From: Legionellaceae bacterium
GTDB lineage: Bacteria > Pseudomonadota > Gammaproteobacteria > UBA12402
DNA length: 64,000 nucleotides
Direction of reading: 5' to 3'
Assembly: GCA_002707695.1 (NCBI GenBank)
Contig: PANR01000018.1
Coordinates: forward strand, 1,865-65,864
The position numbers and the translations under genes are program-made. Within the stretch, counting starts at the first letter, position 1; each line of letters opens with the position of its first letter. Below the pieces are notes generated by a model. The model was given only the letters and a program-made list of their open reading frames with translations. It did no database searches and had not been told where the DNA came from. Below, piece by piece: positions 7,334 through 44,318 of the stretch.

Positions 7334-7424
7334 ATCAACTTTTCATGTAAAAAAAATAGCCAAACAAAAAGGCGGTTGAACAGGGGTTAAAAGTACCATA
7401 GAATCACCGTACTTCTCAAAGGCC

Positions 7425-9491
7425 ATGGAGCATAATTTGGTGCGTAATTTTTCGTTGGTTACCAAACAAGCAAAGCCAAACTTACCAAAAATAACCAACC
7501 AGGCCAGACCTGATTTTGAACAAAAAACACGCTTCTGGCTTGCACTTTTTATTTTCTTTGCTGCTTTCTTCCTACGATTTGCCTACCTCCATCGCCAAGG
7601 CTTTTGGGATAGTGATGAATATTATTCATACCGCTTCATCGTTGCCTATTTGCTGCACCACAACCTTGATCCAGCTTCAGGGGGAGATATGTGGGGTAGA
7701 CCGTTTGGTTTTTTAACCTCATATTTCTTCATGAAACTTTTTGGCTTTACCCCTTTTTCTACCCACATCAAGAGCGCACTTTTTGGATTTCTCAGTATTG
7801 TTATTGGCTACATTGTCGGGGAGAGGCATCTGGGCAAAAATGCGGGATTATTTGCAGCCGCTCTAATGACAAGTTTGTATAGCCTGGTTTACTACTCACG
7901 CACAATGAAAATGACTGCACCCTCTATGTTATTTTGTGCTTTAGCAATCTGGATTTTATTTGAAATTATGAATACACCCGGCATACAAAAGCACGCTTTA
8001 TGCGGCCTCATGCTTGGTTTTATGATCACCACTCATCCTGCCACTATACCGATGGCTTTTTCTATTTTAATGCTATTAGGTATCGTCACGCTTATTAAAG
8101 AAAAAAACTTTAAAACCACCTATATTTACGGCCTACTCACCTTGCTTGGCCTTGCCATCCCGATAATAGGCTGCGAGTTATTTTATCTCCGAACAAAGCT
8201 TTTACCATGGTGGCACATGACGCGGCACGCTGATTACTTAAGCAATGTATTCTTTACCAGTGTTAATGGCGCCCAGCCCCAGTGGGAACACGCCAAACCC
8301 CATCTTTCATTTTTCCTGGGTGAAATTCGAAACAATGGAAAACCGCTTTTGTATGCCATTATTGCCGGACAACTATTTTCTGCGCTGAACTTAACAACTA
8401 AAAAAATGAAACCATTTTTACTCACTATCATGTTTTGGTTACCTGTATTAATTTACACGTATATTCTGCACACGACAGAGGCTGAACGAGACATCTTTAC
8501 CTCCCTATTCCCTGGATGCTTAGTTGTGGGCTATATGTTAGCGCGCATAATCAACCAACTCAAATCAACAGGCATACTTAAAGCAACGGCGCTAACAGCC
8601 ATAACAATCATTTTGTTAGCTTACGGCTTACCCAGAAGCTTTCCAATCATTAAAAACGCATCGGCTGCACAAAACATATATGACGTGATTGGTAATGAGC
8701 AAGCCTCTATGACTCGCCCCTCAACCAATACCGCTCAGTGGCAGCACTACTACTTCACCAATAACGCTCTCTTTGTGGATGGCTGGAACGATGTGTTAAC
8801 TAACTTTTTACTCAATCGGGCGAGCTATTTCATACAACTTACACCAGGCTGGACAAAAAAAACGAATTTCAGCAACACTGAAAAATTCGCGACGTCATAC
8901 AAAACAGCAAACAGCAACGGACGCTTTTCTACCACCTACCTGTACACGCCAAAACAACTTGAAACTATCTTTAAAAACAAATTTTCTCTGACAAAAATTA
9001 AAACCATTGACTTAAATACATTTTCCTCAGTTAAAGATATCCGAGGAAACAGCCCTCTAAATGAATTAATTTCAAAGAAAGGCAAGCAAGCCACCATTAC
9101 CATTCCGCTCAATGCCAACCTTTTAGTCGTTAGCGGAAAAATTGCTTTAAACCCTAGCATAGGAGAAAAGATTAACATCGCCATTGGTAATCACAACAAC
9201 CCAACTGCCTATGCTGTAAAATCGTTTTCTCCACGACAACGCAGCCTAATTTTACCAAACGAGAAAGCAACAAGTATATTTTGCGTGTGGAAATTATCCG
9301 GCAAACAACCCACTCAGCTAACACTCTCCGCTCTATTAAGCAAACATCTATCGTTATTAACCTTGCTGACAAATACGCAAGCAACATTTGATTATTTTTC
9401 AACGATAAGCAAAAAACAGATAAAAGCCTTTTCAGTTACCTTTTATCACATTCCAGAACAGTATCTACCGCAAAACATGCCGACCCTTTAA
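7425..9491 (+). CDS. GT-C fold glycosyltransferase (ArnT / PMT-like, GT39/GT83-type) with a C-terminal periplasmic domain; paralog 1
   Basis: The 688-aa polytopic N-terminal part carries the first-loop motif FWDSDEYYSY (compare ArnT WQPDETRYAE). It is a close paralog of 18889..20940. Confidence 0.6.
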   Translation: MEHNLVRNFSLVTKQAKPNLPKITNQARPDFEQKTRFWLALFIFFAAFFLRFAYLHRQGFWDSDEYYSYRFIVAYLLHHNLDPASGGDMWGRPFGFLTSYFFMKLFGFTPFSTHIKSALFGFLSIVIGYIVGERHLGKNAGLFAAALMTSLYSLVYYSRTMKMTAPSMLFCALAIWILFEIMNTPGIQKHALCGLMLGFMITTHPATIPMAFSILMLLGIVTLIKEKNFKTTYIYGLLTLLGLAIPIIGCELFYLRTKLLPWWHMTRHADYLSNVFFTSVNGAQPQWEHAKPHLSFFLGEIRNNGKPLLYAIIAGQLFSALNLTTKKMKPFLLTIMFWLPVLIYTYILHTTEAERDIFTSLFPGCLVVGYMLARIINQLKSTGILKATALTAITIILLAYGLPRSFPIIKNASAAQNIYDVIGNEQASMTRPSTNTAQWQHYYFTNNALFVDGWNDVLTNFLLNRASYFIQLTPGWTKKTNFSNTEKFATSYKTANSNGRFSTTYLYTPKQLETIFKNKFSLTKIKTIDLNTFSSVKDIRGNSPLNELISKKGKQATITIPLNANLLVVSGKIALNPSIGEKINIAIGNHNNPTAYAVKSFSPRQRSLILPNEKATSIFCVWKLSGKQPTQLTLSALLSKHLSLLTLLTNTQATFDYFSTISKKQIKAFSVTFYHIPEQYLPQNMPTL

Positions 9492-9493
9492 AA

Positions 9494-10291
9494 TTATCGG
9501 GAAAAATACGTTGCCCTCATACGTTCACTCATTGCGATAAAATTTGGATTTAACAATGATTCGGTTGTGTTATACTGTATTTCTGTTAGGTTATTTTCTC
9601 GCAACAACACCCCTCCCGCTTCACTTAAAACACAATGTGCAGCAGCGGTATCCCACTCTGATGTTGGTCCTAAACGAGGATAAATATCTGCCTTACCCTC
9701 TGCCACCAAACAAATTTTTAACGAGCTGCCCACATTAATTAACTCATATTGCTCAAATCTACTCAGCATTTTTTTCAATTGGTCGCTATTGCCATGCCGT
9801 CGACTCGCCACCACACGTACGCGTGTTGGCACTTCATGATTGGCTCGGATTTGAGTCACTTTTCCTTGCTCAACTTTATACGCCCCCCGCCCTTGCTCAG
9901 CGTAATACATCACATCAAGCGCTGGCGCATAAACGACACCCATAACTGGTCGATGATCTTCAATCAACGCGATATTAACGGTGAATTCGTCAGAACGATG
10001 GATGAATTCTTTTGTGCCATCGAGCGGATCAACAAGCCAATAACGATCCCATGCTTTTCTTTGATCCCAGGGCACTACGCTGGACTCTTCGGACAACACA
10101 GGCAATGCCGGCATTAAACGTTTGAGCCCTTCCACAATAATTTGATGTGCTGTCAAATCTGCTTGCGTTAATGGCGAGCCATCTTGTTTGGCAATCACTT
10201 CGAACGCTTCAGGGCTGCGATAAATATCTAACACTGCCTTGCCAGCATCCCGTGCAACCCGCACAACAGCATTCATCCACTCAGACCGCAT
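9494..10291 (-). CDS. cysQ: 3'(2'),5'-bisphosphate nucleotidase CysQ
   Basis: The protein has inositol monophosphatase family motifs (WLVDPLDGTKEF, DTAA). Confidence 0.8.
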   Translation of the reverse strand: MRSEWMNAVVRVARDAGKAVLDIYRSPEAFEVIAKQDGSPLTQADLTAHQIIVEGLKRLMPALPVLSEESSVVPWDQRKAWDRYWLVDPLDGTKEFIHRSDEFTVNIALIEDHRPVMGVVYAPALDVMYYAEQGRGAYKVEQGKVTQIRANHEVPTRVRVVASRRHGNSDQLKKMLSRFEQYELINVGSSLKICLVAEGKADIYPRLGPTSEWDTAAAHCVLSEAGGVLLRENNLTEIQYNTTESLLNPNFIAMSERMRATYFSR

Positions 10292-10436
10292 TTAACAACC
10301 CTCTTCATATTTTTTGACATATAAATGCTCAATTTCATGCGCATCAGCCAGCATCCTAGATGAATTATCCCTTGATTTCATCCTATAATTTTATCATAGT
10401 ACCTCAACTTCTAACTGCATTGATGGTACATAGGCA

Positions 10437-11438
10437 ATGGAAAATTTCTGGAAAAACAAGCGCGTCCTTATCACTGGCATCTGTGGCACCATTGGCCAAG
10501 AGCTATTGCGCCAACTACATGAAGCAGCGGTGTCTGAAATAGTAGGTATTGATAATAATGAAACAGGGCTTTTTTTCCTCAAACAAAAATATCAAACAAG
10601 CTCTCACATCACACTCGAGCTAGGCGATCTCAGAGACCGCGATAGGTTGATAAGCATAATGCGCGGCATTGATGTGGTATTACATGCAGCCGCCTTAAAG
10701 CACGTCGGCCTATGCGAGCAATCTCCTTCGGACGCTATTCAAACGAATATTTTAGGCACTCAAAACATTATTCAGGCCGCTATTCACAACAAAGTGGCTA
10801 GAGTGCTATACACCTCATCTGATAAAGCCGTCAACCCAACTAATGTAATGGGCACCTCAAAGCTAATGGGAGAGCGCCTCATTACAGCGGCCAACAATTT
10901 TGGCGATGGCAATACGGTATTTCTTTCAACACGATTTGGAAATGTGTTGGGGTCAAGAGGGTCGGTTATTCCACTTTTCAAAAAACAAATTGCCCAGGGA
11001 GGGCCTGTTACACTGACGCATCCTGACATGACACGCTTTATCATGACACTCTCTGAAGCCACAAAATTAGTGATTGACAGTGCCTTTCTTGGCAATGCCG
11101 GTGAAGTTATGGTGACTAAAATGCCAGCCATCAACATAAAAGATTTGGCTGAAATTATGGTTCGAGAGCTTGATCCGTCGGTGCAAATTAAGTTGATCGG
11201 TTCAAAGATTGGCGAAAAAATGTATGAAGAACTGGTTAACGAAGAAGAAGTTCGCCGAACGAGGGAAACCAATAATTATTTTATTATTGAACCTGCTTTT
11301 GCCGCTCAGCGAAGCAATGCGCCATCCATCCACTCTGCATACAATTCACAAAAAAGTAAAAAAATGTCCAGAGAAGATCTGCGAACCTATTTGAAAAAGA
11401 ATCAGCTTCTTCACGAACAAGAGGAAGTGATAGCATGA
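10437..11438 (+). CDS. short soluble CapD/PseB/WbpM-C-terminal-like UDP-sugar 4,6-dehydratase
   Basis: The 333-aa protein has a GxxGxxG start (ITGICGTIGQ) and the motif TSSDKAVNPTNVMGTSK with FGNVLGSRGSVIPLF. These are near-identical to the catalytic domain of the WbpM-like protein at 27889..29754. Confidence 0.75.
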   Translation: MENFWKNKRVLITGICGTIGQELLRQLHEAAVSEIVGIDNNETGLFFLKQKYQTSSHITLELGDLRDRDRLISIMRGIDVVLHAAALKHVGLCEQSPSDAIQTNILGTQNIIQAAIHNKVARVLYTSSDKAVNPTNVMGTSKLMGERLITAANNFGDGNTVFLSTRFGNVLGSRGSVIPLFKKQIAQGGPVTLTHPDMTRFIMTLSEATKLVIDSAFLGNAGEVMVTKMPAINIKDLAEIMVRELDPSVQIKLIGSKIGEKMYEELVNEEEVRRTRETNNYFIIEPAFAAQRSNAPSIHSAYNSQKSKKMSREDLRTYLKKNQLLHEQEEVIA

Positions 11439-12580
11439 ACGTTTTAATTCTTGGTGCCGACGGTTATCTTGGCTGGCCGACAGCAATGTTTTTTGCACAA
11501 CAGGGCCACAAAGTTTGCGCGGTTGATAACTATTTGCGGCGCAAGCTGGCCGCAGCGCATCAAGCCGAAGCACTTATCCCCACGCCAGATTTACAGAAGC
11601 GTGCTGAGATTTTTAAACGTCAAACTGGCAACGCAATTGAAACACACATTGTTGATTGCGCCGACTATGAACAACTATCCAGTCTTTTTCAATCGTTTAA
11701 GCCCGATGCAGTTATCCACTATGCCGAACAACCTTCTGCGCCTTTTTCTATGCTTGGGTTTAAAAACGCCTCCTTGACCCTAAATAATAATCTTAATACG
11801 ACATTCAATGTGATTTGGGCTGTCATGGAACATGCGCCTGACTGTCACATTATCAAACTTGGCACAATGGGCGAGTATGGCACGCCAAATATTGATATCG
11901 AAGAAGGCTGGCTGAACATCACGCACAATGGCCGCTCAGATAAATTTTTATATCCCAGACAAGCGGGCAGCCTCTACCACACAACAAAAGTGTTAGATAC
12001 GGATTTACTCTGGTTCTATGTTCGCAACAATAAATTGCGCGTTACTGACCTCATGCAAGGGCCTGTATATGGACTATCAACGCCTGAAACCGAGCTAGAT
12101 GATGAGCTCTTACCTAATTTTCACTACGATGATATATTTGGCACTGTCGTTAACCGATTTCTTGTGCAAGCAGTTGCCGGCATGCCATTGACCGTTTATG
12201 GAAGTGGCGGTCAGACGCGTGGTTACCTCAATTTAAATGATACGCTACAATGCGTTAAGTTGGCGGCTGATACGCCAGCAAAACCAGGTGAGTTACGAGT
12301 ATTTAACCAGCTTACCGAATTATTTAGCGTTAACCAACTGGCCGAGAAAATCAAAAATGTTGGAGATGGCCTGAACCTAAATGTACAAATAAAATCAATC
12401 ACCAACCCACGGAAAGAAAATGAAGACCACTATTATAATGTTAAGCATCACGGCCTTGCCGAGCTAGGCTTAAAACCACACCTCATGACAGATGAAGTTA
12501 TCAAAGGCATGTTAAACAAAGTGCTTAACTTCAAAGACAACATCGATGAGTCAAAAATTCTTCCCAAAATAAAATGGTAG
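11435..12580 (+). CDS. sqdB: UDP-sulfoquinovose synthase (SQD1 / SqdB / Agl3 family)
   Basis: The N-terminal motif LGADGYLGW matches the SQD1 GGDGYCGW, with DNYLRRK following. The stretch KLGTMGEYGTPNIDIEEGW..ITHNGRSD..YHTTKV matches the SQD1 active-site region as I recall it. The protein is 381 aa. Confidence 0.8.
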   Translation: MNVLILGADGYLGWPTAMFFAQQGHKVCAVDNYLRRKLAAAHQAEALIPTPDLQKRAEIFKRQTGNAIETHIVDCADYEQLSSLFQSFKPDAVIHYAEQPSAPFSMLGFKNASLTLNNNLNTTFNVIWAVMEHAPDCHIIKLGTMGEYGTPNIDIEEGWLNITHNGRSDKFLYPRQAGSLYHTTKVLDTDLLWFYVRNNKLRVTDLMQGPVYGLSTPETELDDELLPNFHYDDIFGTVVNRFLVQAVAGMPLTVYGSGGQTRGYLNLNDTLQCVKLAADTPAKPGELRVFNQLTELFSVNQLAEKIKNVGDGLNLNVQIKSITNPRKENEDHYYNVKHHGLAELGLKPHLMTDEVIKGMLNKVLNFKDNIDESKILPKIKW

Positions 12581-12593
12581 CTGTGTCAAACCT

Positions 12594-13574
12594 ATGATAA
12601 CTGCTAAACAGATTGTTAAAAAAAACTTAGCAAAATTATTTATTTCTCTATTGATCACCCTATTTTTAGGTGGCTTCATCGTACAGTATACCAACTTTGA
12701 AAAGTTTTTAGCAACTTTCCAAAATATTCACTGGTTTTATTTTTTGTTATCTATTGGCCTCTTCATTCTTTATCAATATATTAGACGGCTTAGGTTTCAA
12801 CTGTTAATTAACGCCAGCTGCAATCAATTACATCTTTTGAATACACAATGCATTCATTCTGCCGCAAGAAATATTTTACCCATTGGCTTAGGCGAAGCTG
12901 CATTTGTTTACTTAATGAAACGTTTTTATCGATGCAGTTATCACGAAACCACAGCTGCTATTATTATTGCAAAAATGTTAGACCTATTAATTTTGCTCTT
13001 TCTATCAACCGCATTCGTTGTGTTTCTTTCCGCAACTTTCCAAAAAAACATAATTATTGCCTTATTTGGGCTGTTGTTATTATTACTAATCTCATCAGCT
13101 GGTATTTTTTTGTTGTTACGCATCGAAAGAAACAGGCGGCTGAAGAAAAAAGATTTCAAAAACTCTTTTTTGAGCAGAAACTTAACGTTACTTGCGTCTT
13201 CCATCAGAACCGTTATAAAAAAGGGCATGAGCTACAAACTTGGCGTTTATTCAATAGCCATGATCACGGTAATGTATTTCTTTTATGTCTCTTTGTTCCA
13301 TACGCTAGGGCTCAACCTTAAATGGCATGTAACGGCAATTGCCTACTTAGTTGCTGGCGGCATTGGCTTACTACCCATAAAAGGACTTGCAAATATTGGT
13401 ACATTTGAGGCCCCCTGGTTTATCGTGTTAACCAGCTTTAATCTATCGACAGAAAAGGCCGCTATTGCTAGTTTTGGTGTACACATTTTGTTATTTGTTA
13501 GTGTATTTATTTCGCTGATAATTTCAACAAGCTTACTCATTATTTCAAAGAACCTACATAAACCACTTCAGTGA
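12594..13574 (+). CDS. flippase-like polytopic membrane protein (UPF0104 / LPG-synthase-TM-type)
   Basis: The 326-aa protein has about 8 TM segments. It is arranged directly upstream of a GtrB-like GT2, as in lipid-linked glycosylation modules. Confidence 0.5.
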   Translation: MITAKQIVKKNLAKLFISLLITLFLGGFIVQYTNFEKFLATFQNIHWFYFLLSIGLFILYQYIRRLRFQLLINASCNQLHLLNTQCIHSAARNILPIGLGEAAFVYLMKRFYRCSYHETTAAIIIAKMLDLLILLFLSTAFVVFLSATFQKNIIIALFGLLLLLLISSAGIFLLLRIERNRRLKKKDFKNSFLSRNLTLLASSIRTVIKKGMSYKLGVYSIAMITVMYFFYVSLFHTLGLNLKWHVTAIAYLVAGGIGLLPIKGLANIGTFEAPWFIVLTSFNLSTEKAAIASFGVHILLFVSVFISLIISTSLLIISKNLHKPLQ

Positions 13575-13667
13575 GTGCAGCAGAACTCTGCACAACAACA
13601 TCCCAGTCAAAGCATACATAAAGACTCCTAGATCAGGTAGCCTAACAGCGAGCTTTTATGCTACAGT

Positions 13668-14729
13668 ATGCCTACTATGAGCTCATTCTCACTGCTACGA
13701 ACATCTGGGTTAATTCTAGGCCTCGTTTTTCTAGTCGCCTTATTCAAAACGCTGCGCAGCACCCCTGGCCGGCGCATGTATGTTAATACTTTTTTCTTGT
13801 TGGGCTCCGGACTCATTCTTGTCTCCCTGTTTCCAAATATTATAAATTCTCCCGCTGCCTTTTTCTCACTATCGAACGTTAAAGGCGGGCGCATTATTAC
13901 TTTACTCATCGTCGCTAACATCGCCTTATTACTATTTGCACTATATATAAATAAAAGAACTTACCAGATAAAATCTCAAATCAACCAATTTATCGAAAAA
14001 GTTGTGAGCAGTGAGACATCAAAAAATGCTTCAAACGAGAATTTATCTGAATTCATTGTAGTATTAATCCCCGCATATAACGAAGCAGAAAATTTAAAAA
14101 TGTTGCTGCCTAAAATACCCAGCTCTATTCATGGAAAAATTGTAAAGGCTCTAATTGTTGATGATGGTAGCTCTGACAGTACTGGCATAGTTGCCGAAGC
14201 AAATAACGCCATTCTTATTAAGCACCCATTCAACCGCGGAGGCGGCGCAGCACTAAGAACCGGTTACCAATTTGCAAAACAAAATCATGCGACCATCATC
14301 GTTACAATGGATGCTGATGGTCAACACGACCCGCGAGAGCTTGTGAACCTGACCACTCCTCTTCTTGAAAAGAAGGCGGACTTTGTTATCGGATCAAGAA
14401 CGCTTGGCTCATTTGACAGCTACTCACGAACCAGGATTCTTGGCTTATACTTTTTTAACTTCCTTCTCACCGTGCTGATGGGAATCAAAGTCACCGACTG
14501 TTCTAGTGGCTACAGGGCATTAAACTTATCTGCGCTTAGTCAAATTAGACTGCGCCAAGATCAATACCACACTGCCGAATTAATTATTGATGCGGCAAAA
14601 AATGGGGTCAAGATACTCGACGTCCCTATTCATGTCTCGCCACGCTACAGCGGTGAAAGCAAAAAAGGACACAATCTCTTTTATGCTTTCCGATTTTTAC
14701 GAACCATATTAACTTCTTGGTGGGCGTAA
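13668..14729 (+). CDS. GT2 polyprenyl-phosphate sugar synthase (DPM1/ArnC/GtrB-like) with an N-terminal TM region
   Basis: The protein has the motifs VLIPAYNE, DDGSSD and TMDADGQHDP (DxD) after two N-terminal TM helices. Confidence 0.7.
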   Translation: MPTMSSFSLLRTSGLILGLVFLVALFKTLRSTPGRRMYVNTFFLLGSGLILVSLFPNIINSPAAFFSLSNVKGGRIITLLIVANIALLLFALYINKRTYQIKSQINQFIEKVVSSETSKNASNENLSEFIVVLIPAYNEAENLKMLLPKIPSSIHGKIVKALIVDDGSSDSTGIVAEANNAILIKHPFNRGGGAALRTGYQFAKQNHATIIVTMDADGQHDPRELVNLTTPLLEKKADFVIGSRTLGSFDSYSRTRILGLYFFNFLLTVLMGIKVTDCSSGYRALNLSALSQIRLRQDQYHTAELIIDAAKNGVKILDVPIHVSPRYSGESKKGHNLFYAFRFLRTILTSWWA

Positions 14730-14759
14730 TCGTTGCTCGCACGATCGCATGAGCAATTC

Positions 14760-15911
14760 TTAAAGGTAACCAATATGCTCAAGCTTTAGCAGTATTTTTT
14801 GCACAGCCTCATCCGGCAAACAATTCGCCGCGTCAATAGCAAGCTCCGGGCTTGTTGGCACTTCATAAGGATCATCAATCCCAGTGAAATTTTTTATCTC
14901 ACCTTCACGGGCTTTTTTATACAGGCCTTTCCGGTCGCGCTGTTCACACACCTCCAAGCTGGTTGACACGTATATCTCAACATAACCTGCGCCATGCTGA
15001 TCAACCAACTTCCTGACGTCTGCTCTCGCTTCTTCGTAGGGGGCAATAGGCGCACAAATAGCAACGCCACCGTGTTTGGCAATCTCACTTGCAACAAAAC
15101 CAATACGTCTAACATTGATGTTACGGTCCTCCTTAGAAAAACCTAAACCCTTTGATAACGCTTGTTTACGTATCAAGTCGCCATCAAGCAGCGTCACAGC
15201 ACGACCGCCTATTTCTAATAATTTAATCATCAATGCATTAGCGATGGTTGATTTCCCAGCACCTGACAAACCAGTAAAAAACACTACAAAACCTTGCTTA
15301 GATTTAGGAGGATGTGTTTTACGCAACTCATCGATAATTTCTGGATAAGAAAACCATGCAGGCACTTCTATACCATCACGCAAACGACGCCTAAATTCGG
15401 TGCCTGATATTGTTAGAACGGTTTCACCACCGCTTAATTTATCTTTTGGCAAGTACTGCCCTTTTTCTTCAACGTAAACTACCTCTTGAAAAGGAATCAT
15501 TTCAATACCAATCTCACCTTCATACCGCCTTATTAAATCTTGCGCATCATAAGGACCATAAAAATCTTGCCCTTGAGAATTTTTTCCAGGACCCGCGTGA
15601 TCACGCCCAACGATGAAATGAGTGCAACCATAATTTTTGCGAATGATTGCATGCCACAATGCCTCGCGCGGCCCAGCCATGCGCATCGCGAGCGGCAACA
15701 AGCTCAACATAGTTGTTTGCTCAGGATATCGCTGAAGCATTTTTTCATAGCAACGAACACGGGTGTAATGATCTATGTCGCCGGGCTTGGTCATACCAAC
15801 CACAGGATGAATCAATAAATTAGCCTCATTATCTTTAGCAGCTCTCAACGTAAGCTCTTGATGCGCACGGTGCATTGGGTTGCGCGTTTGAAACGCAACA
15901 ATTTTTTCCAA
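14760..15911 (-). CDS. sat/cysC: ATP sulfurylase catalytic domain fused to APS kinase (Sat-CysC); the C-terminal portion of a frameshifted gene
   Basis: The ATP sulfurylase motifs are VAFQTRNPMHRAH and GRDHAGPG. The APS kinase P-loop is FFTGLSGAGKST. The gene continues from 15845..16468 in another frame. Confidence 0.75.
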   Translation of the reverse strand: MEKIVAFQTRNPMHRAHQELTLRAAKDNEANLLIHPVVGMTKPGDIDHYTRVRCYEKMLQRYPEQTTMLSLLPLAMRMAGPREALWHAIIRKNYGCTHFIVGRDHAGPGKNSQGQDFYGPYDAQDLIRRYEGEIGIEMIPFQEVVYVEEKGQYLPKDKLSGGETVLTISGTEFRRRLRDGIEVPAWFSYPEIIDELRKTHPPKSKQGFVVFFTGLSGAGKSTIANALMIKLLEIGGRAVTLLDGDLIRKQALSKGLGFSKEDRNINVRRIGFVASEIAKHGGVAICAPIAPYEEARADVRKLVDQHGAGYVEIYVSTSLEVCEQRDRKGLYKKAREGEIKNFTGIDDPYEVPTSPELAIDAANCLPDEAVQKILLKLEHIGYL

Positions 15912-16468
15912 CCTAACTTTTGGAACTGCGCCTTAAGCTCTGCGGGGGTGTGACGCAAATGCCGAAAATCGTAGTGCGTAGGTACAGCCGCTTTTTTAAG
16001 CTTACCACCCACATAATATTCACCCGCATGCTTGTGCAAATAACAAACAGCCGGATGTGCCATGTCATCCGCGCCAAAAACCGCCTTGGCCTCTAACGAT
16101 TTATCAGGCCGCCAGATATCGGTCACAGTTAAAATGGCAACCAACATTCCTTCTGGATCCCTTAGCGCAATTTCTGCCCCGCACTTGACTGATTGAGCAA
16201 ATAACCTCGACACATCGAGCGTAATCGGCATGGGCCAAAGTGTGCCATTTTGTAGACGCATACTGGCAAGAACGCTTTGATAATCTGCTTGAGACATGAA
16301 CCCATTCAACGGCGCAAAGCCTCCATTAATAAGTAATTCAAGATCACAAAGTTGTCGGGGTGCAAGAGACCATTCAAGCATAGCCGCTTCTTTTTGGTCA
16401 TTAGTTTGCTTTAGACCCAACATTAAATCAGATATTTTTTCATCAAATGGTGTAATTTCTTCACCCAT
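15845..16468 (-). CDS. sat: ATP sulfurylase N-terminal (PUA-like) domain; the N-terminal portion of the frameshifted sat-cysC
   Basis: The fragment ends ..FQKLGWKK exactly where sulfurylases continue ..VVAFQTRNP. The frames switch at an A6 run (T6 at 15902-15907 on the + strand). Confidence 0.7.
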   Translation of the reverse strand: MGEEITPFDEKISDLMLGLKQTNDQKEAAMLEWSLAPRQLCDLELLINGGFAPLNGFMSQADYQSVLASMRLQNGTLWPMPITLDVSRLFAQSVKCGAEIALRDPEGMLVAILTVTDIWRPDKSLEAKAVFGADDMAHPAVCYLHKHAGEYYVGGKLKKAAVPTHYDFRHLRHTPAELKAQFQKLGWKKLLRFKRATQCTVRIKSLR

Positions 16469-16730
16469 CTCTCACCTCACACATGAAACCATAGCAAACA
16501 TAAGTTGCTTCCAACTAACGTTTACTTTGTCTCGCATAGTAAACTAATCAGGACTTGACTTCATCATCGGCCAGTCAATTTAATAAAAAGTAAAATATGA
16601 TTTAACCACCCATTTTCTTATTCCCCAACCATTTCAGAAATTTCACCAGCACTTTTATTGCTCTAAGCTTGCAAATCAATTACTATTTGCTCAAATCCCC
16701 TGTCAACTAGAGCAAGAAGGATAGCAAAAC

Positions 16731-16979
16731 TTGATAAAACCAACAGATGCAAGGCGACGAAGCTTTCTCAAAGCCTTGAGCTGGCGATGCTTGGCTACAC
16801 TCACAACTTTTCTTATCAGTTATGTCGTAACGGGCAACTTTGCTTTTGCTGCCTCTATCGGTGGCCTTGAAGTCATTGCAAAAATTATTCTGTATTACTT
16901 TCATGAAAGAGCGTGGAATCAAGCCAGATTTTGGCAACATGTAAAACAACCAGATGAGCCTGCAGCGGATGCAAAATAG
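16731..16979 (+). CDS. DUF2061-like small membrane protein
   Basis: The 82-aa protein has two TM helices and a WRCLATLTTFLISYVVTG...YYFHERAW pattern. It is typically found beside APS/PAPS reductase genes. Confidence 0.55.
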   Translation: MIKPTDARRRSFLKALSWRCLATLTTFLISYVVTGNFAFAASIGGLEVIAKIILYYFHERAWNQARFWQHVKQPDEPAADAK

Positions 16980-17712
16980 CCCTCGATTTGCTAGCCCTGA
17001 TAGCCTAGAAATTCAGACAAAAAAATTAGAGACTTTTACGCCGCAAGAAATTCTGGCTTGGGCCTGGAATGAATACGCACCTCGAGTAAAAGTTGCCACC
17101 GGCTTTGGCGCCGAGGGCATGGTTTTAATTCACATGCTTGCCGAAATCGCGCCTCAAATATCTGTGTTTAATTTAGACACTGGTTATCAATTTCCTGAAA
17201 GCCTGTCACTCAAAGAAGCCGTTAAAAAACGCTATGGTATTGATATCAAACTTGTGCAGCCAGAAACTTCCGTAACAGACTATGAAAAAATTCATGGTGG
17301 CCCTGTTTATTTAACCGACGCAAATCAATGCTGTCATGATAGAAAAGTAACTGTCTTAAAAAAAGCACTGCAAGGAACCTCTGCCTGGCTAACTGCGATT
17401 AGGCGAGACCAGAGCCCAACCCGATCTAATGTGCCCATTTTGGGCTGGGATAAACAATTTAACCTTGTCAAAATCAACCCACTCGCCAACTGGAACAAGC
17501 ATGACGTATGGGCATTTATAAAAAAATACAACATTCCCTACAACCCCTTATATGATCAAGGCTATACCAGCATTGGGTGCTGGCCTTGCACAAAAAAACC
17601 CAATAATAGTGACGAACGATCCGGACGGTGGTCAGGGAGCGAGAAAACTGAATGTGGCATTCACCACCCAAACTTGAAAATCAATTCAACTCACTCACTA
17701 AAGTCTCAATAA
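16954..17712 (+). CDS. cysH: phosphoadenosine phosphosulfate (PAPS) reductase CysH
   Basis: The protein has the PP-loop region and the C-terminal KTECGIH active-site Cys motif. Confidence 0.85.
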   Translation: MSLQRMQNSPRFASPDSLEIQTKKLETFTPQEILAWAWNEYAPRVKVATGFGAEGMVLIHMLAEIAPQISVFNLDTGYQFPESLSLKEAVKKRYGIDIKLVQPETSVTDYEKIHGGPVYLTDANQCCHDRKVTVLKKALQGTSAWLTAIRRDQSPTRSNVPILGWDKQFNLVKINPLANWNKHDVWAFIKKYNIPYNPLYDQGYTSIGCWPCTKKPNNSDERSGRWSGSEKTECGIHHPNLKINSTHSLKSQ

Positions 17713-18772
17713 TTAGATCCTGCTGACTCGCATTAATATATGGATGCATCGGCAAACTTAGCACTTGACCTGACAATTCTTCAGAGGTGAAAAGCTTGTC
17801 AGAACAAATGATTTGTTCTTTGTAAGCAGGCTGTTTATGTAGAGGCTCAGGATAATGCACAATACTCGGAATTCCCTGTTTTTTTAAAGCGAGCATCGCG
17901 CTATCTCTATCCTCAAGTCTGATGACGTACTGCGCATACACACTTCTGCCAAATGCTTCCACGAAAGGTAATTGAATGTTTGTACCCAATCCTGTATTAT
18001 AACGATCAGCCACTTGTTGTCGCAACTCAATTTCTTCCGGAAAAATTTTTAATTTTTCTAATAAAATTGCGGCCTGAATGGTATCTAATCGAGAATTCAT
18101 TCCCACCCTAACATGCTGATACTTTTGCGCTTGGCCATGCACATGAATCTGCTTCATTCTTTCAGCTAACTCATCATCATCGGTAAAGCAGGCACCACCA
18201 TCACCATAACATCCAAGCGGTTTTGCAGGGAAAAAACTTGTTGTCGCAATCGTCGACAAATGGCAAGATCGCCGCCCCTTATATGTTGCCCCCATGCTTT
18301 GTGCAGCATCTTCGATAACCGGCAAATTGTGCTTCTTCGCGATTTGATTAATCGCATCAAAATCGCAGCACTGACCAAACAAATTCACAGGGACAATTGC
18401 TTTTGTTTTGGATGTGATAGCCGATTCCAGTTTAGACACATCTAGATTGAATGTTCTCTCATCGACATCAACCAACACGGGTGTGGCTCCCAAGAAAACA
18501 ATCATTTCAAGAGCAGCAATGTAGGAAAAAGCGGGGGCAATCACTTCATCGCCAGGGCCAATATCAAGCGCCATCATGGCAATCAGCAAAGCATCAGTAC
18601 CGTTGGCTACTGCGATACAATGCCGACTGTCAACAAATTGAGACAACGCTTCTTCAAGCTGCATCACCTCAGGACCCATGATATATTTCCCATGATCCAA
18701 TACTCTTTTAATGGCAGATTCTATTGGTTGTCTAATTTTTTTTTGTTGTGCTTCAATATCAATAAACTTCAC
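17681..18772 (-). CDS. DegT/DnrJ/EryC1-family PLP sugar aminotransferase (ArnB/WecE-like)
   Basis: The 363-aa protein has the family N-terminal pattern (GKYIMGPEV..LE..) and a conserved Lys region. Confidence 0.8.
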   Translation of the reverse strand: MKFIDIEAQQKKIRQPIESAIKRVLDHGKYIMGPEVMQLEEALSQFVDSRHCIAVANGTDALLIAMMALDIGPGDEVIAPAFSYIAALEMIVFLGATPVLVDVDERTFNLDVSKLESAITSKTKAIVPVNLFGQCCDFDAINQIAKKHNLPVIEDAAQSMGATYKGRRSCHLSTIATTSFFPAKPLGCYGDGGACFTDDDELAERMKQIHVHGQAQKYQHVRVGMNSRLDTIQAAILLEKLKIFPEEIELRQQVADRYNTGLGTNIQLPFVEAFGRSVYAQYVIRLEDRDSAMLALKKQGIPSIVHYPEPLHKQPAYKEQIICSDKLFTSEELSGQVLSLPMHPYINASQQDLIIETLVSELN

Positions 18773-18888
18773 ACCCTTCCCCTCCGCCTATAACCCACTG
18801 ACCCATACACCAGGTTGCAACAGGAATTGAATACGCTCTAAAAGTATCATAGAATCAGCTCCTCGACAAAGGGCGGGGGCATAAATTA

Positions 18889-20940
18889 ATGCAAATTTTA
18901 AGAGCAACTGGTGATAAAATAAAAACTGCGCTTTTGAAAACATTCCATGCCTATACTCAGCTTAATTCTGAACAAAAAACGCGTCTAACCCTTGCGCTCT
19001 TGATTTTTTTTACTGGATTTTTCCTCAGATTTGCCTACCTGAAGTATCAAGGCTTTTGGGACAGTGATGAATATGCGTCATATGCAGCCATGATGGGACA
19101 AATTCTTCAAGGAGACTTGTCTCATTTTTTGGGTGGCAATATGTGGGGGAGACCTTTTGGGTTCTTAACCTCGTATTTTTTCATGAAAATCTTCGGCTTC
19201 ACCCCTTACGCAATTCACATTAAAAGCGCACTACTTGGATTTTGTACCATTGTAATAGGCTACATCATTGGGGAGAAACACTTGTGTAAAAATGCTGGGT
19301 TATTTGCAGCAGCATTAATAGCGAGTTCGTATGAGCTTGTTTACTACTCACGCACAATGAAAATGACAGCCCCGTCTATGTTTTTCTGCGCACTGGCAAT
19401 ATGGATTTTATTTGAAATCATAGACAACCCCGGCACCCAGCGGCATGCTTTGTGCGGACTGATGTTAGGTTTTATGCTCACCACACACCCTGCGACCATC
19501 CCCATGACAGCAACTATCTTACTTATGCTTGCCATTGTAACAATCGCAAAGGAAAAAAAAATTGGGCAATCGCTAAACTATGGTCTTCTCACCTTGCTAG
19601 GCCTCCTCACCCCCATCATTGGCTGTGAATTGTTTTACCTTAGCGCAAAAATTTTGCCATGGTGGCATACCGCACCCAACATAGATTACATGAAATTTTT
19701 ATTCTTCTACAACCAACATGGGCCAGCTAACCTACAACATGTAAAACCTCATATTTCTTCTTTTCTCGGTGAAATAACAAATAACGGTAAAGCTCTCTTG
19801 TATCTTATAGGGGCTGGGCAGGCAATTTCCCTGATTGCTTTGCTTAAAGGAAAAATTAAACCCTTTTTACTCAGCATGATATTTTGGCTGCCGATTTTAA
19901 TCTACACCTATATCCTGCACCCTGTAGTGGCTGAACGCAATATTTTTACATCTCTATTTCCGGGCTGCTTGATTGGGGGGTATTTTTTTGCATACCTCAT
20001 TAATCAGACCAAACTAACATCGTTCCTTAAATCTTTCGCCATAGCAATCACATCATTCGCGCTCCTGACCTATGGAATTCCCAAAAGCCTTCCTATCATC
20101 AAAAATGCATCGGCCGCACAGAACATATATGATTATATTGGCAGCCAACAGGCCTCTATGACCCGCCCCTCCAAAAGCGTATATCAGTGGGAACATTACT
20201 ACTTCACAAACAGTTCGCTTTCCGTTGACAATTGGAGTGATGTGTTAAAAAATTTTCTACTGAACCGAGCTAATTATCTCATCCAACTCACCCCCTCCTG
20301 GACAAACGCTACTGGCTTTGAAGACACACAAAAATATGCAACTCAATTTAGGACGGCAGAGAGTCATGGTGGATTTTCTGTTTACTATCTCTACAATCCA
20401 AAACAGCTCGAAAAAATTTTGAAAGATAAATTTTCTCTGACAAAAATCAAATCAATTAATCTAAAAAGATTTTCTTCACTGACTGGCATACAAAAAAGTC
20501 AAAGCAACAAATATATGTTTGAAAAAAAAGCAAAGCAAATTATTATTAACATCCCAACTGACGCCAACCTCCTAGCAATTAGTGGGAGAATTCCCCTTAA
20601 TCCCGATATCGGAGAAAGTATTAATATTGCAATTGGAAACAAAAGCAAACCCACTCTGTACACCTTAAAATCTTTTTCTCCTCATGAAAACGGGGCGTTA
20701 TTACCCAACGAGAAAGAAACTAACATTTTTTATGTCTGGGAACTAGCTGGTAAAAAACTCACTCAACTGACTCTGTCCCCCTTGCTGACCAAGCGTTTAT
20801 CGCTGCGCGCTTTGCTGAGAAACTTTCCAGAAGCATTTGCCTATTTTTTTGCAACTGACAAAAAACAAATAAAAGGCTTTTCTGTCACCTTCTATCACAT
20901 CCCTAACAAATATCTACCAAAAAATATGCCGTCGATTTAA
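18889..20940 (+). CDS. GT-C fold glycosyltransferase (ArnT/PMT-like); paralog 2
   Basis: The 683-aa protein has the motif FWDSDEYASY. It is collinear and highly similar to 7425..9491 (for example GGNMWGRPFGFLTSYFFMK and SAAQNIYD). Confidence 0.6.
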   Translation: MQILRATGDKIKTALLKTFHAYTQLNSEQKTRLTLALLIFFTGFFLRFAYLKYQGFWDSDEYASYAAMMGQILQGDLSHFLGGNMWGRPFGFLTSYFFMKIFGFTPYAIHIKSALLGFCTIVIGYIIGEKHLCKNAGLFAAALIASSYELVYYSRTMKMTAPSMFFCALAIWILFEIIDNPGTQRHALCGLMLGFMLTTHPATIPMTATILLMLAIVTIAKEKKIGQSLNYGLLTLLGLLTPIIGCELFYLSAKILPWWHTAPNIDYMKFLFFYNQHGPANLQHVKPHISSFLGEITNNGKALLYLIGAGQAISLIALLKGKIKPFLLSMIFWLPILIYTYILHPVVAERNIFTSLFPGCLIGGYFFAYLINQTKLTSFLKSFAIAITSFALLTYGIPKSLPIIKNASAAQNIYDYIGSQQASMTRPSKSVYQWEHYYFTNSSLSVDNWSDVLKNFLLNRANYLIQLTPSWTNATGFEDTQKYATQFRTAESHGGFSVYYLYNPKQLEKILKDKFSLTKIKSINLKRFSSLTGIQKSQSNKYMFEKKAKQIIINIPTDANLLAISGRIPLNPDIGESINIAIGNKSKPTLYTLKSFSPHENGALLPNEKETNIFYVWELAGKKLTQLTLSPLLTKRLSLRALLRNFPEAFAYFFATDKKQIKGFSVTFYHIPNKYLPKNMPSI

Positions 20941-21000
20941 TGGTGGATCTTTTTTGCAGTTGCTTAACATGGATACCATGCTGTCTCAACTTAAACAACA

Positions 21001-21987
21001 TCATTCTTCCCAGCTCGACTCACACCTAGTGTCTCGAGATGAGTCCATGTCAAACCACATAGCAAAAAATAAAGACTGGAAGCCTGAAATAACTAAAAAA
21101 GCTGCAAACAATGCTGAGGTTGCTGCAACAGAATGGCCAAGCAGTCTTGTCACAACGAGAACCAAACCAAACACTGAGCCCAGTGGCAACACAACAATAG
21201 ATAATAAATAAAACAATACTAGCGGATGAAAATCACGAATGATATATTTTTCCTTCATCCGCCAAAAAAAACATTTGAACAATATGATTGATAGTGACCA
21301 TGTTGCGGAAAAAAGCCCAATACTAGAAACCTCACCGACACCATAAACCGGCTTTGTATGAATATCGCATACACGAAACTGATGTATATTAAGCGCTACT
21401 AACACTATATTTGGCAACCCGTAGCGACGATACAGTTTTTCCAATTTAACTGCTTTAAGTGCACGTAACGATATCGCAGTATAACCATTTTGGGGATCAC
21501 CCACATGCCAATACCCAGATGCAATTTTGGTCAAAAAAGATAAAATGGCGCTGCCCAAATATCGACCCTTGGGAAAATCATCTCGCGCACCTTCAATAAG
21601 CAGCCTATTTCCTTTTGTATAATCCGCTTTGTTAGCAACAATTGGCTCAATATAACGGTGTAGCTGCTCAGGGTCCATCTGCGCATCACCTGCCATTACA
21701 GCTGTCACCTCCATATTGTTATCTCTTGCCCATCGATATCCTGTTGCTACCGCCCCACCAGGCCCTGCATTCTTTTTATGTTCGATTAAAACAAGACGAT
21801 CCGCATATGATTTTTTAATTTTCTTGACGACTGCAACAGTATCATCTTTACTCTTATCATCAACCACAACCATTCGGTCAACATAATCGGGCATCGTTGT
21901 TATCACTTTTTCAATTTGGCGAGCTTCATTGTAGGCCGGAATGACAACACAGATTGACTTGCCTTTAAACATGTTTATGATCTCCAA
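21001..21987 (-). CDS. GT2 polyprenyl-phosphate glycosyltransferase (GtrB/ArnC-like) with two C-terminal TM helices
   Basis: The protein has the motifs VVIPAYNE, DDKSKDDT and MAGDAQMDP, plus a C-terminal hydrophobic hairpin. Confidence 0.75.
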   Translation of the reverse strand: MEIINMFKGKSICVVIPAYNEARQIEKVITTMPDYVDRMVVVDDKSKDDTVAVVKKIKKSYADRLVLIEHKKNAGPGGAVATGYRWARDNNMEVTAVMAGDAQMDPEQLHRYIEPIVANKADYTKGNRLLIEGARDDFPKGRYLGSAILSFLTKIASGYWHVGDPQNGYTAISLRALKAVKLEKLYRRYGLPNIVLVALNIHQFRVCDIHTKPVYGVGEVSSIGLFSATWSLSIILFKCFFWRMKEKYIIRDFHPLVLFYLLSIVVLPLGSVFGLVLVVTRLLGHSVAATSALFAAFLVISGFQSLFFAMWFDMDSSRDTRCESSWEE

Positions 21988-22127
21988 CGATTCAATGATA
22001 CCATCCTAACGGTTTCCACAAAATATTCAACGTTATTAACAATATTGAACATATTATCGTTTGCTGGCATTGACAACTTCGGCTATCATGACCCCGTTTA
22101 ACCACCCAGGCAAGCGATGAGCGAAAA

Positions 22128-22721
22128 ATGAGCTTTAAAACGGGCAACAACTGTCAAATACAAGAGCATGCTCTAGTTGGATTTATGTATAAGCAGGGTT
22201 GCCAGGAAACCCGCCTGGGCAATAATTGTATTGTAAGAGCGTTTACTATCATTTATGAAGATGTAGTCATTGGCGACAACTTTAAAACTGGCCATCACGC
22301 ACTCATCAGAGAGCACACCAACATTGGTAGCAACATTGTTGTGGGCTCAAACAGTATCATTGATGGTCATTCGAGCATTGGCAATAAAGTGAAGATAGAA
22401 AGCCAAGTATATATTCCCACACACACAACCATTGGCGATAACGTCTTTATCGGGCCTGGAGCAACTCTAACAAATGACCGCTATCCTCAACGATGCAGAA
22501 ATGAATATAGACCTGAAGGACCCACTCTTGAAAATGGTGTGACCATCGGAGCCAATGCAATTATATTACCTGGAAAACGAATTGGGGAAGGAGCATTTGT
22601 AGCGGCCGGCACGGTTGTAACAAAAGATATCCCTCCTTGGACATTGGCAAAAGGATCCTCTTGCACACTTTCACCACTCCCAGAACACCTGCGAGAGCTG
22701 AACGAGGCAATCCATTGGTAA
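22128..22721 (+). CDS. left-handed beta-helix (hexapeptide repeat) sugar N-acetyltransferase
   Basis: The protein has repeating [LIV]G-x-x-x-x hexapeptides (IGDNVFIGPGATL, IGANAIILPG). Confidence 0.7.
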   Translation: MSFKTGNNCQIQEHALVGFMYKQGCQETRLGNNCIVRAFTIIYEDVVIGDNFKTGHHALIREHTNIGSNIVVGSNSIIDGHSSIGNKVKIESQVYIPTHTTIGDNVFIGPGATLTNDRYPQRCRNEYRPEGPTLENGVTIGANAIILPGKRIGEGAFVAAGTVVTKDIPPWTLAKGSSCTLSPLPEHLRELNEAIHW

Positions 22722-22731
22722 GAGGTATATA

Positions 22732-24799: not shown

Positions 24800-24822
24800 C
24801 GGGTAAAGAATAGTGGAAATAA

Positions 24823-25413: not shown

Positions 25414-25414
25414 T

Positions 25415-36672: not shown

Positions 36673-36833
36673 AAGCTACTCCATTGGTCGACTTAATTTG
36701 CGCAAAAATTGGGAAAACATTTGGAAGAAAAACAAAGGTTCCGCCATCATAGCAACAAATGTCTATGGCAAACAAACCCTTTTTGACTGCCTAGCGGTCT
36801 TGCTGAAAGAACTGCGTGAAGGGTTGGTCGAAC

Positions 36834-36894
36834 AAACCCTGATTGGACAGGATGTCCAATCCGGAGCGAGGCAGAGATGTACGTGAGCGTGTTT
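36834..36894. repeat. 61-bp core copy of a small dispersed repeat (palindromic TTGGACAGGATGTCCAA core); related to the element at 62236..62388
   Basis: It matches 62305..62364 almost exactly, except for a 6-7-nt central variable patch. Confidence 0.7.
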
Positions 36895-44241: not shown

Positions 44242-44318
44242 TTACAGCCCAAATTATAAACTAAACCTACATGGGAGCCTGAGGGCCAGGCAAGTATAAT
44301 AATTAACATTGATTAAAA

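Follow-up and report, generated by a model that had tools for sequence, protein, structure and literature searches.

In Streptococcus pyogenes, the GT2-family glycosyltransferase GacI makes GlcNAc-P-undecaprenol and is activated by GacJ, a protein of the DUF2304 family, and the GT-C enzyme GacL transfers the sugar to the rhamnan backbone; in the logic of this system, a GT2 enzyme loads the carrier, a flippase moves the carrier, and a GT-C enzyme adds the side chain outside the cytoplasm (bioRxiv 10.1101/180810). In GacI/GacJ/GacK/GacL, as in PpgS/Rv3632 of Mycobacterium tuberculosis, the GT2 enzyme has the help of a small DUF2304 membrane protein, either as a separate partner or in a fusion. 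Other systems with likenesses to the locus described here are the Arn system, which delivers 4-amino-4-deoxy-L-arabinose (L-Ara4N) to lipid A, the GtrA/GtrB/GtrC systems of Salmonella and Shigella, which are accessory, strain-variable three-component O-antigen modules, and the enzymes Agl3 of Sulfolobus N-glycosylation and SqdB of the sulfolipid pathway. The gtrABC genes usually form phage-borne single operons with Dam/OxyR phase variation, and a single genome can encode several GtrC-type paralogues. Paralogous GT-C transferases in accessory lipopolysaccharide (LPS)-modification loci are a well-known class and are unsurprising alone. The present analysis concerns two such paralogues, GTC1 and GTC2, and the promoter-like element upstream of each, in a stretch of 64,000 nucleotides (nt) from a Legionellaceae bacterium (contig PANR01000018.1, positions 1,865 to 65,864), which is referred to as the window and is part of Tara Oceans scaffold TARA_SAMEA2621176_METAG-scaffold_58 (103 kb). 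The genes and their upstream sites are as follows.

7440 to 9491, plus strand: GTC1, a 683-amino-acid GT-C (PMT_2) glycosyltransferase (PF13231, 59.6 bits against a cut-off of 26.1)
18889 to 20940, plus strand: GTC2, a 683-amino-acid GT-C (PMT_2) glycosyltransferase (PF13231, 56.8 bits against a cut-off of 26.1)
7388 to 7406, plus strand: conserved 19-nt element, copy 1, TAAAAGTACCATAGAATCA, covering the proximal spacer, the -10 box and 2 further nt
18839 to 18857, plus strand: conserved 19-nt element, copy 2, TAAAAGTATCATAGAATCA
7376 to 7404, plus strand: promoter-like site of GTC1, with -35 TTGAAC at 7376-7381, a 17-nt spacer and -10 TAGAAT at 7399-7404
18827 to 18855, plus strand: promoter-like site of GTC2, with -35 TTGAAT, a 17-nt spacer and -10 TAGAAT at 18850-18855

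It is likely that the two genes arose by a single old duplication of about 2.1 kb, that the core of the promoter was selectively kept, and that the copies belong to two co-expressed periplasmic glycan-modification modules. Pairwise alignment bore out the collinearity and the long identical stretches reported in an earlier note on this DNA, with 64% identity and 76% similarity over 657 amino acids and one gap (62% identity over 682 aligned positions) and with long runs, such as WGRPFGFLTSYFFMK and VYYSRTMKMTAPSM, that are identical in both proteins. Both copies retain every family-invariant residue, namely D59/E60 in the first periplasmic loop, R154/K157, E246, R350 and the WxxYYF block. The motif WDSDEY (D57, D59, E60), whose acidic residues were placed in the first loop from the predicted structure, is present in both copies, and its D59 and E60 are invariant in an 8-member family alignment. 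No third GT-C copy was found in the window. The length of 683 amino acids given in the earlier note was correct for GTC2, but the 688 amino acids given for GTC1, counted from ATG 7425, were probably not; the likely start is GTG 7440, which aligns opposite the GTC2 ATG and is also the start of the public gene call P0001 (683 amino acids), and a Shine-Dalgarno (SD) sequence lies 9 nt upstream of the start in both genes (GGAG at 7427-7430 for GTC1 and GGGGG at 18875-18879 for GTC2). GTC2 is deposited as NCBI MAZ77379.1, a "hypothetical protein" of a Legionellaceae bacterium metagenome-assembled genome, and a terminator-like hairpin is located at its end (20929-20946).

In the codon alignment of the two genes, the synonymous sites are saturated, with a proportion of synonymous differences (pS) of 0.75 and 39% identity at four-fold degenerate sites, and the nonsynonymous divergence (dN) is 0.28, which indicates that the duplication is old. 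The ratio of nonsynonymous to synonymous divergence (dN/dS) is well under 1 in each 100-codon window in which dS could be estimated, and both copies are intact under purifying selection. The nucleotide identity of the coding sequences is 60-76%, and the longest near-identical tracts, of 26-35 nt, encode the most conserved peptides. The homology extends over about 2.1 kb and takes in the promoter, some 30 nt of leader and the open reading frame (ORF); it ends at the stop codon, and there is none 5' of the promoter. BLASTN of the flanks found nothing in the 3' flank and only the 19-mer in the 5' flank. GTC1 and GTC2 are each a lone plus-strand gene with minus-strand genes on both sides, so that a relocated copy had to bring its own promoter. 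Because the promoter core was kept at a divergence that is saturated elsewhere, it appears to have been preserved by selection.

These data also bear on the proposal, made in the earlier note, of a segmental duplication. If the duplication were recent and segmental or tandem, and the sulfur and sugar genes had been inserted later between the copies, this would explain why the copies have the same orientation and bracket a 9.4-kb block and why their upstream elements are nearly identical. High identity did not continue into both flanks, however; the flanks are unrelated except for the promoter core, the homology ends at the stop codon and the -35 box, and the saturation of the synonymous sites is not that of a recent event. 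Recent duplication was rejected on these grounds and, taken with the outgroup and the close relative described below, is extremely improbable.

The 18-mers reported in the earlier note were confirmed at 7389-7406 (AAAAGTACCATAGAATCA) and 18840-18857 (AAAAGTATCATAGAATCA), and when up to 3 mismatches were allowed the window gave no further match, with 0.11 expected by chance; none of 100 shuffled sequences contained two matches. With the preceding T included, 18 of the 19 positions match. The offset between the two elements is 11451, in register with the offset of 11449-11452 between the coding sequences. A scan for sigma-70-type consensus sequences showed that each element is part of a promoter-like site, TTGAAY-N17-TAGAAT, in which 9 of 12 consensus positions are matched at a spacing of 17 nt. 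Between the end of the -10 box and the start codon there are 35 nt in GTC1 and 33 nt in GTC2. The shared promoter suggested in the earlier note is plausible from this anatomy, as a sigma-70 promoter copied with the gene. The conserved element spans ten proximal spacer positions, the -10 hexamer and 2-3 further nt. On visual inspection, the copies can also be aligned at the -35 box (TTGAAC/TTGAAT), at a CAAAGG(G)C block and from the SD sequence to the start.

A chance match or a short gene-conversion tract could in principle produce 18-19 nt of identity without selection, since about five unrelated pairs matching at 17 of 18 positions occur in the window and paralogues in one locus can undergo gene conversion. 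The match between the GT-C genes, however, falls in register with the coding alignment within two intergenic regions of about 110 nt, for which the probability of such a pair was estimated at ~1e-5; it coincides with the -10 box, with a -35 box 17 nt upstream in both, and no longer high-identity tract adjoins it. Together with the conservation in a close relative described below, this makes an origin by chance or conversion very improbable. The survival of the promoter core through full synonymous saturation instead marks about 19 nt as functionally constrained, and on this basis co-regulation of the two surface-modifying enzymes is predicted.

Of the 12 positions of the element that lie outside the -10 hexamer, 11 agree between the copies, which is improbable at a neutral identity of about 39% (calculated p ~2.5e-4) and suggests that the constraint extends beyond the hexamers; it could reflect the context of the promoter, or a regulator could have a site that overlaps the -10 box. 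The latter would make the element mainly an operator for a dedicated regulator that switches both enzymes, much as arnT in Salmonella is under PmrA control, and this would add to the duplication of a promoter-bearing unit rather than replace it. The conservation exceeds the needs of sigma-70, with 10 spacer positions and 2-3 nt after the -10 box, and by inspection two parts of the element, TAAAAGTA and TAGAATCA, can be read as an imperfect direct repeat with a spacing of 11 nt and identity at 5 of 8 positions. There are, however, only two or three sites, and they lack dyad symmetry; the locus yielded no regulator gene, and no further copy of the motif was found in 21 kb of adjacent contig. The sequence TATCATAGTA at 10392-10401, which resembles the core TAYCATAGAA of the GT-C promoters, is intergenic and lies directly after a perfect TATAAT box upstream of the operon of pseB-like, sqdB-like, flippase and GT2A genes described below. 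TAYCATAGNA occurs at only three sites in the window, all in promoter regions of the GT-C locus, but the third could be due to chance, as TAYCATAG occurs 9 times in the window. An operator is therefore possible but rather doubtful.

No Rfam family matched the region, and the 5' leaders had no significant predicted fold (z-scores of 0.55 and -0.11). The motif was not found upstream of distant family members in the loci L002-L007. The exact 18-mer had 126 matches in two large public collections of genome and metagenome contigs (43 + 83), all of them chance matches, none of which extends past ~20-30 nt or lies near a relative of GTC1. The motif is lineage-specific.

Positions 1 to ~30.6 kb of the window form an O-antigen/LPS-type cluster with a Wzx-like flippase, a Wzz protein, HisH/HisF-like amidotransferase genes, several nucleotide-sugar enzymes and glycosyltransferases. 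The 9.4 kb between GTC1 and GTC2 were confirmed to carry the sulfosugar cassette announced in the earlier note, with genes for cysQ, a PseB/FnlA-like dehydratase, an SqdB-like enzyme, a flippase-like protein, a GT2 enzyme, sat/cysC, cysH and a DegT aminotransferase. The genes around the two transferases are the following.

9494 to 10291, minus strand: cysQ, 3'(2'),5'-bisphosphate nucleotidase (TIGR01331, 313.9 bits against a cut-off of 228.8)
10437 to 14729, plus strand: four-gene operon (dehydratase, SqdB-like, flippase-like, GT2A)
10437 to 11438, plus strand: PseB/FnlA-like 4,6-dehydratase, first gene of the four-gene operon
11435 to 12580, plus strand: SqdB-like enzyme (NF041015, 448 bits, under the cut-off of 575)
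12594 to 13574, plus strand: flippase-like LPG_synthase_TM protein (LPG_synthase_TM, 86 bits against a cut-off of 33.4)
13668 to 14729, plus strand: GT2A, a polyprenyl-phosphate-sugar-synthase-like GT2 enzyme with an N-terminal membrane extension
14760 to 16468, minus strand: sat/cysC (PUA_2, ATP sulfurylase and APS kinase domains), in two overlapping frames
16954 to 17712, plus strand: cysH, PAPS/APS (phosphoadenosine or adenosine phosphosulfate) reductase (NF002537, 261.5 bits against a cut-off of 154)
17681 to 18772, minus strand: DegT1 aminotransferase (Pfam PF01041), divergent from GTC2
21001 to 21987, minus strand: GT2B, a GT2 enzyme with C-terminal hydrophobic segments (GtrB/ArnC-like layout), convergent with GTC2
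22128 to 22721, plus strand: hexapeptide acetyltransferase (Pfam)
22732 to 23730, plus strand: GFO/MocA oxidoreductase (Pfam)
23714 to 24799, plus strand: DegT2 aminotransferase (Pfam)

The family to which GTC1 and GTC2 belong is very small and uncurated. About 15 billion proteins in total were searched for close homologues. A word-indexed search of 5.8 billion clusters returned only three close clusters, namely GTC1, GTC2 and P0002, a protein from JGI, and an exhaustive HMMER search of 1.84 billion representatives returned 16 family clusters at E<1e-30. The profile search added only generic PMT_2 proteins to the three close clusters, and no relatives emerged when genome and metagenome contigs were scanned with a 4-sequence protein alignment. 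In 200 of 200 resamplings, GTC1 and GTC2 (62% identity) grouped as sisters, with P0002 as the outgroup (51% to GTC1 and 55% to GTC2). On the P0002 contig (6.3 kb), the GT-C gene is followed by a convergent Inositol_P gene of the cysQ type and then by a fused 561-amino-acid PUA_2/ATP-sulfurylase/APS-kinase gene. This adjacency indicates that the link between the GT-C gene and sulfur genes predates the duplication, which argues against the insertion of the cassette between pre-existing copies, an option raised in the earlier note, and thereby also against a recent duplication. From the gene order, GTC1, which is convergent with cysQ and separated from it by 2 nt at its stop codon, appears to occupy the ancestral position.

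At four distinct loci in other organisms, a family member is found within an O-antigen-type cluster; in three of the four, it is 1-4 kb from a GT2 gene and a DUF2304 gene (in one also with LPG_synthase_TM), and in the fourth it directly follows a GT2 gene with C-terminal membrane segments. The two paralogues thus define a very small, uncharacterised GT-C subfamily that accompanies GacI/GacJ-type carrier-loading genes in O-antigen-like loci. The distant members P0008-P0014 carry an extra C-terminal domain of ~100-150 amino acids with a conserved FWxPWW motif (alignment A4, columns ~710-905), which is missing from the clade of GTC1, GTC2 and P0002. In two of the relatives' loci (L003 12329-15681 and L005 8569-10407), the family GT-C gene is followed by genes for other large membrane proteins, of 528 amino acids (weak PMT_2) and 589 amino acids (no Pfam match), and also of 612 amino acids (DUF6798). 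These loci also contain a conserved trio of methyltransferase, NAD_binding_8 and radical-SAM genes beside GT2 and DUF2304, which suggests an unusual modified sugar donor in those organisms.

A close relative of the locus was found through the best non-self match to DegT1, P0167 (83% amino acid identity), which led to the 7-kb contig L011 (Logan SRR33375159). Positions 1-7004 of L011, compared with 13634-26431 of the window, are 89-94% identical at the nucleotide level to four separate pieces of it. In L011, GT2A and DegT1 are directly convergent, and the segment corresponding to 14730-17680 of the window (sat/cysC, DUF2061, cysH) is absent. A second block is missing as well.

About 18934 to 23887: block of about 4.95 kb missing in L011, from past codon 15 of GTC2 to codon 58 of DegT2

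It holds all of GTC2 beyond codon 15, the genes for GT2B, the acetyltransferase and the oxidoreductase, and DegT2 up to codon 58. The breakpoints lie in a ACNGCNCT (Thr-Ala-Leu) microhomology at GTC2 codons 13-15 and DegT2 codons 56-58, and the junction joins the first 15 codons of GTC2 to DegT2 from residue 59 onward, with a frameshift further downstream; the L011 state is a deletion and not ancestral. Although the gene is deleted, the GTC2 promoter retains 37 consecutive identical bases in L011, including the motif, the spacer and the -10 box, compared with 80% identity in the distal intergenic region and 69% in the relic codons. The unchanged element argues further against chance or conversion as its origin. 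In addition, retention of the junction in L011 shows that the arrangement of DegT1, promoter and GTC2 predates the split from L011, which again is not expected of a recent duplication. The loss of the block indicates that the GTC2 module is dispensable and strain-variable, and the joint loss with GTC2 makes GT2B and the three downstream sugar genes its likeliest functional partners. Between DegT2 and a hexapeptide transferase, L011 also has an asparagine-synthase-like gene that the window lacks, and its GTC2 SD region carries a 16-nt tandem duplication.

The comparison with L011 also bears on whether GTC1 and GTC2 might be xenologues, acquired separately by horizontal transfer from related donors, with the common promoter reflecting the ancestry of the donors. 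LPS/O-antigen loci are mosaic, L011 differs by two multi-kb insertions or deletions in this region, and the family is sparsely sampled, so that closer relatives of either copy may be unsampled. The copies are nevertheless mutual nearest relatives among the ~15 billion proteins searched, they are identical in length, start geometry and promoter layout, and their GC content, overall and at third codon positions (GC3), is indistinguishable from that of housekeeping genes. Separate acquisition is therefore unlikely. Duplication followed by specialisation, the other option raised in the earlier note, fits the data.

The two copies have not evolved at the same rate. In Tajima's relative-rate test, GTC1 evolved faster than GTC2, with 79 versus 52 unique changes (p = 0.018). 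The excess of GTC1 comes from the first periplasmic loop together with the C-terminal domain (39 versus 17 unique changes), and the membrane segments are balanced (28 in GTC1 and 31 in GTC2). The C-terminal domains had been described in the earlier note as diverged; at 62% identity they are as similar as the whole proteins, and what remains of this description is the asymmetry of the periplasmic parts. It is this asymmetry in relative rate that points to periplasmic specialisation.

The AlphaFold2 model (pLDDT 84.8, pTM 0.84; 17-sequence family alignment) consists of ~12 long helices up to residue 405 followed by a beta-rich C-terminal domain of 280 amino acids, which has weak matches only, to carbohydrate-binding modules. 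Foldseek gave a probability of 1.00 to AglB, STT3, PglB, ArnT, Pmt4, ALG9/12 and EmbB, and the model suggests that GTC1 and GTC2 have the GT-C fold yet are members of none of these families. Among curated NCBIfam families, the sole match was TIGR03663 (Agl23), at 30 bits and under its cut-off. The family profile matched no solved structure among PDB sequences, ArnT included. A GT39 protein O-mannosyltransferase (PMT PF02366, MIR, PMT_4TMC) was considered and rejected, as only PMT_2 matched.

Identity with ArnT was likewise rejected, as there was no match to a curated ArnT model or to the sequence of a solved ArnT and no arn operon context. The two transferases resemble ArnT in the GT-C fold (Foldseek to 5ezm/5f15, target-normalised TM-score of 0.52) and in the acidic motif of the first periplasmic loop, and their surroundings resemble the Arn system in having a polyprenyl-phosphate-sugar GT2 gene and DegT-type aminotransferase genes nearby. 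Unlike in ArnT, however, the C-terminal domain is much larger, and the closest named homologues of DegT1 (58-60% identity) are UDP-2-acetamido-2-deoxy-3-oxo-glucuronate (WbpE-type) aminotransferases. No ArnA-type formyltransferase/decarboxylase or ArnD-type deformylase was found among the scanned ORFs from 1573 to 27786. The earlier note had paired one copy with ArnB-like genes; this pairing is contradicted by the WbpE-like nature of DegT1 and by L011, which lost GT2B, the acetyltransferase, the oxidoreductase and DegT2 with GTC2, and not DegT1.

The likeness to the Gac and PpgS systems includes the family members elsewhere that lie near GT2 and DUF2304 genes, as well as GT2A itself, a GT2 enzyme with an N-terminal membrane extension and a weak DUF2304 match (19.7 bits, under the cut-off of 25.5). 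GT2A is directly downstream of the flippase-like gene and 4.2 kb from GTC1, and GT2B is 60 nt from GTC2; both had their best scores against PpgS, AglJ and ArnC-type models, all under the cut-offs. The flippase-like protein scored 30.7 bits against the "flippase-like domain" model TIGR00374, under its cut-off of 43.2, and no separate flippase was seen near GTC2. Unlike the Gac system, the locus belongs to a Gram-negative Legionellaceae host, its transferases have the C-terminal domain of 280 amino acids and occur as two paralogues with a common promoter, and its predicted supply genes are SqdB-like and sulfate-activation genes in place of a simple UDP-N-acetylglucosamine donor. The likeness to GtrA/GtrB/GtrC lies in the accessory, strain-variable nature of the modules, one of which is deleted in L011; unlike gtr operons, the GT-C genes are separate single-gene units that are not phage-associated, and the conserved element contains no GATC.

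With respect to Agl3 and SqdB, the likeness is that an SqdB/Agl3-like gene occurs together with genes for sulfate activation, sulfite formation and glycan assembly. Unlike in those systems, the score of 448 is under the cut-off of 575, no lipid glycosyltransferase of the SqdX/SqdD type was seen, and sat/cysC is frameshifted. The proposed sulfosugar route would run via a polyprenyl-phosphate carrier and a GT-C enzyme. The dehydratase and sqdB-like genes overlap by 4 nt (ATGA, 11435-11438), which suggests translational coupling of the two; perhaps they share a pathway, for example to a 6-sulfo derivative of an N-acetylhexosamine, and not to plain sulfoquinovose. The frame of sat/cysC is split by a 1-nt insertion or deletion at or beside an A6 run (15902-15907), just ahead of the conserved VAFQTRNPMHRAH motif, into a 207-amino-acid PUA_2 part and a 383-amino-acid ATP-sulfurylase and APS-kinase part, whose frames overlap in 15845-15911 (minus strand), whereas the homologue next to P0002 is a single 561-amino-acid ORF. 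The split may mean that the gene is a true pseudogene or has a slippery or phase-variable site, or it may be an error of assembly.

Under the old duplication of a promoter-bearing unit favoured here, the promoter, the leader of ~30 nt with its ribosome-binding site and the GT-C gene would have been duplicated once, long ago, within this Legionellaceae lineage, and GTC2 would be the relocated copy, 9.4 kb away between DegT1 and GT2B. Selection on the promoter core (TTGAAY, AAAAGTAYCA, TAGAAT) would have kept both enzymes under the same control. Each would be a polytopic inner-membrane protein with a periplasmic, beta-rich C-terminal domain. The neighbouring GT2 genes of the polyprenyl-phosphate-sugar-synthase type point to a polyprenyl-phosphate-linked sugar donor; GT2A or GT2B would load the carrier in the cytoplasm, the carrier would then be flipped, and the GT-C enzyme would move the sugar from the carrier to an LPS/O-antigen acceptor in the periplasm, in the three-component logic of ArnC/ArnT, GtrB/GtrA/GtrC and GacI/J/K/L. 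GTC1 would be paired with GT2A, the flippase-like protein and the SqdB-like and sulfur genes, and GTC2 with GT2B, the acetyltransferase, the oxidoreductase and DegT2, the last three being the likely donor-sugar genes of its module, so that the two copies probably serve two different modules. The other gene pairs of the locus (GT2A and GT2B, DegT1 and DegT2, two hexapeptide acetyltransferases, two GFO oxidoreductases) are each only 25-35% identical, GT2A and GT2B just 32%; they are therefore family-level relatives outside the GT-C duplication event.

Several observations weigh against this interpretation. The scan found promoter-like sites about as often in the real as in shuffled sequence (44 versus 37), promoter function is assigned from consensus anatomy, and the motif has just two instances plus the L011 orthologue. 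GTC2, not GTC1, is closer to the outgroup in sequence (55% versus 51%), so that, with GTC1 in the apparently ancestral position, the direction of copying is uncertain; and the P0002 contig spans only 6.3 kb, so that its genome may have a second copy, and the motif may be present upstream of the P0002 gene. A larger tandem duplication of DegT-GTC-cysQ-sat-cysH with later losses is a speculative alternative; the search with DegT1 did not reveal which gene lies upstream of P0002. The pairing of GT-C with GT2 genes comes from adjacency and one co-deletion event. The SqdB-like and DUF2304 matches are under curated cut-offs, and the sulfur branch may be decaying, as sat/cysC is frameshifted and the segment is also absent in L011.

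A more specific form of the duplication model would make the paralogues co-regulated terminal enzymes of two parallel carrier-lipid pathways that place differently charged sugars on the same LPS. One may be a sulfoquinovose-related 6-sulfo sugar that the SqdB-like enzyme would make with local sulfite, GT2A would load and one of the GT-C enzymes would transfer; the other may be an N-acetylated amino sugar from the acetyltransferase, the oxidoreductase and DegT2, loaded by GT2B and transferred by GTC2. This joint form is speculative and on balance improbable, but if true, a polyprenyl-phosphate sulfosugar pathway that supplies a GT-C enzyme would be described for the first time in bacteria, and surface charge would be decided in one step at the common promoter or operator. 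The locus documents the strain-level gain or loss of a whole modification module in uncultured marine Legionellaceae, and it provides context for surface variation in Legionellales and for the neighbouring sulfosugar genes.

Outside the GT-C locus, the window contains genes for YhdP, TamA/TamB, MreBCD, GatCAB, GltX and an LssY_C-domain protein, a content in keeping with the Legionellaceae assignment, and two other repeats were noticed. The first is a 28-nt direct repeat with 2 mismatches (41599-41626 and 44306-44333), the second copy of which overlaps the 3' end of a tRNA-Glu gene (44319-44394, minus strand). The copies bracket ~2.7 kb with two ORFs without Pfam match (41748-43352 and 43414-44241), a PIN-domain gene is close by (44727-45113), and the pair looks like an attachment (att)-type scar of a small element integrated at the tRNA. 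The second is a repeat of ~60 nt with few mismatches (36833-36894 and 62304-62364), which contains the perfect hairpin TTGGACAGGATGTCCAA and has its second copy between gatA and gatB; it may be an intergenic repeat resembling repetitive extragenic palindromes (REP) or miniature inverted-repeat transposable elements (MITE). Just past the right end of the window, beside gatB, are three tandem genes for eukaryotic-type Ser/Thr protein kinases (597, 563 and 488 amino acids), which are reminiscent of Legionellales effector arrays.

L008 11436 to 16513 (contig sequence beyond the window): tandem kinase genes

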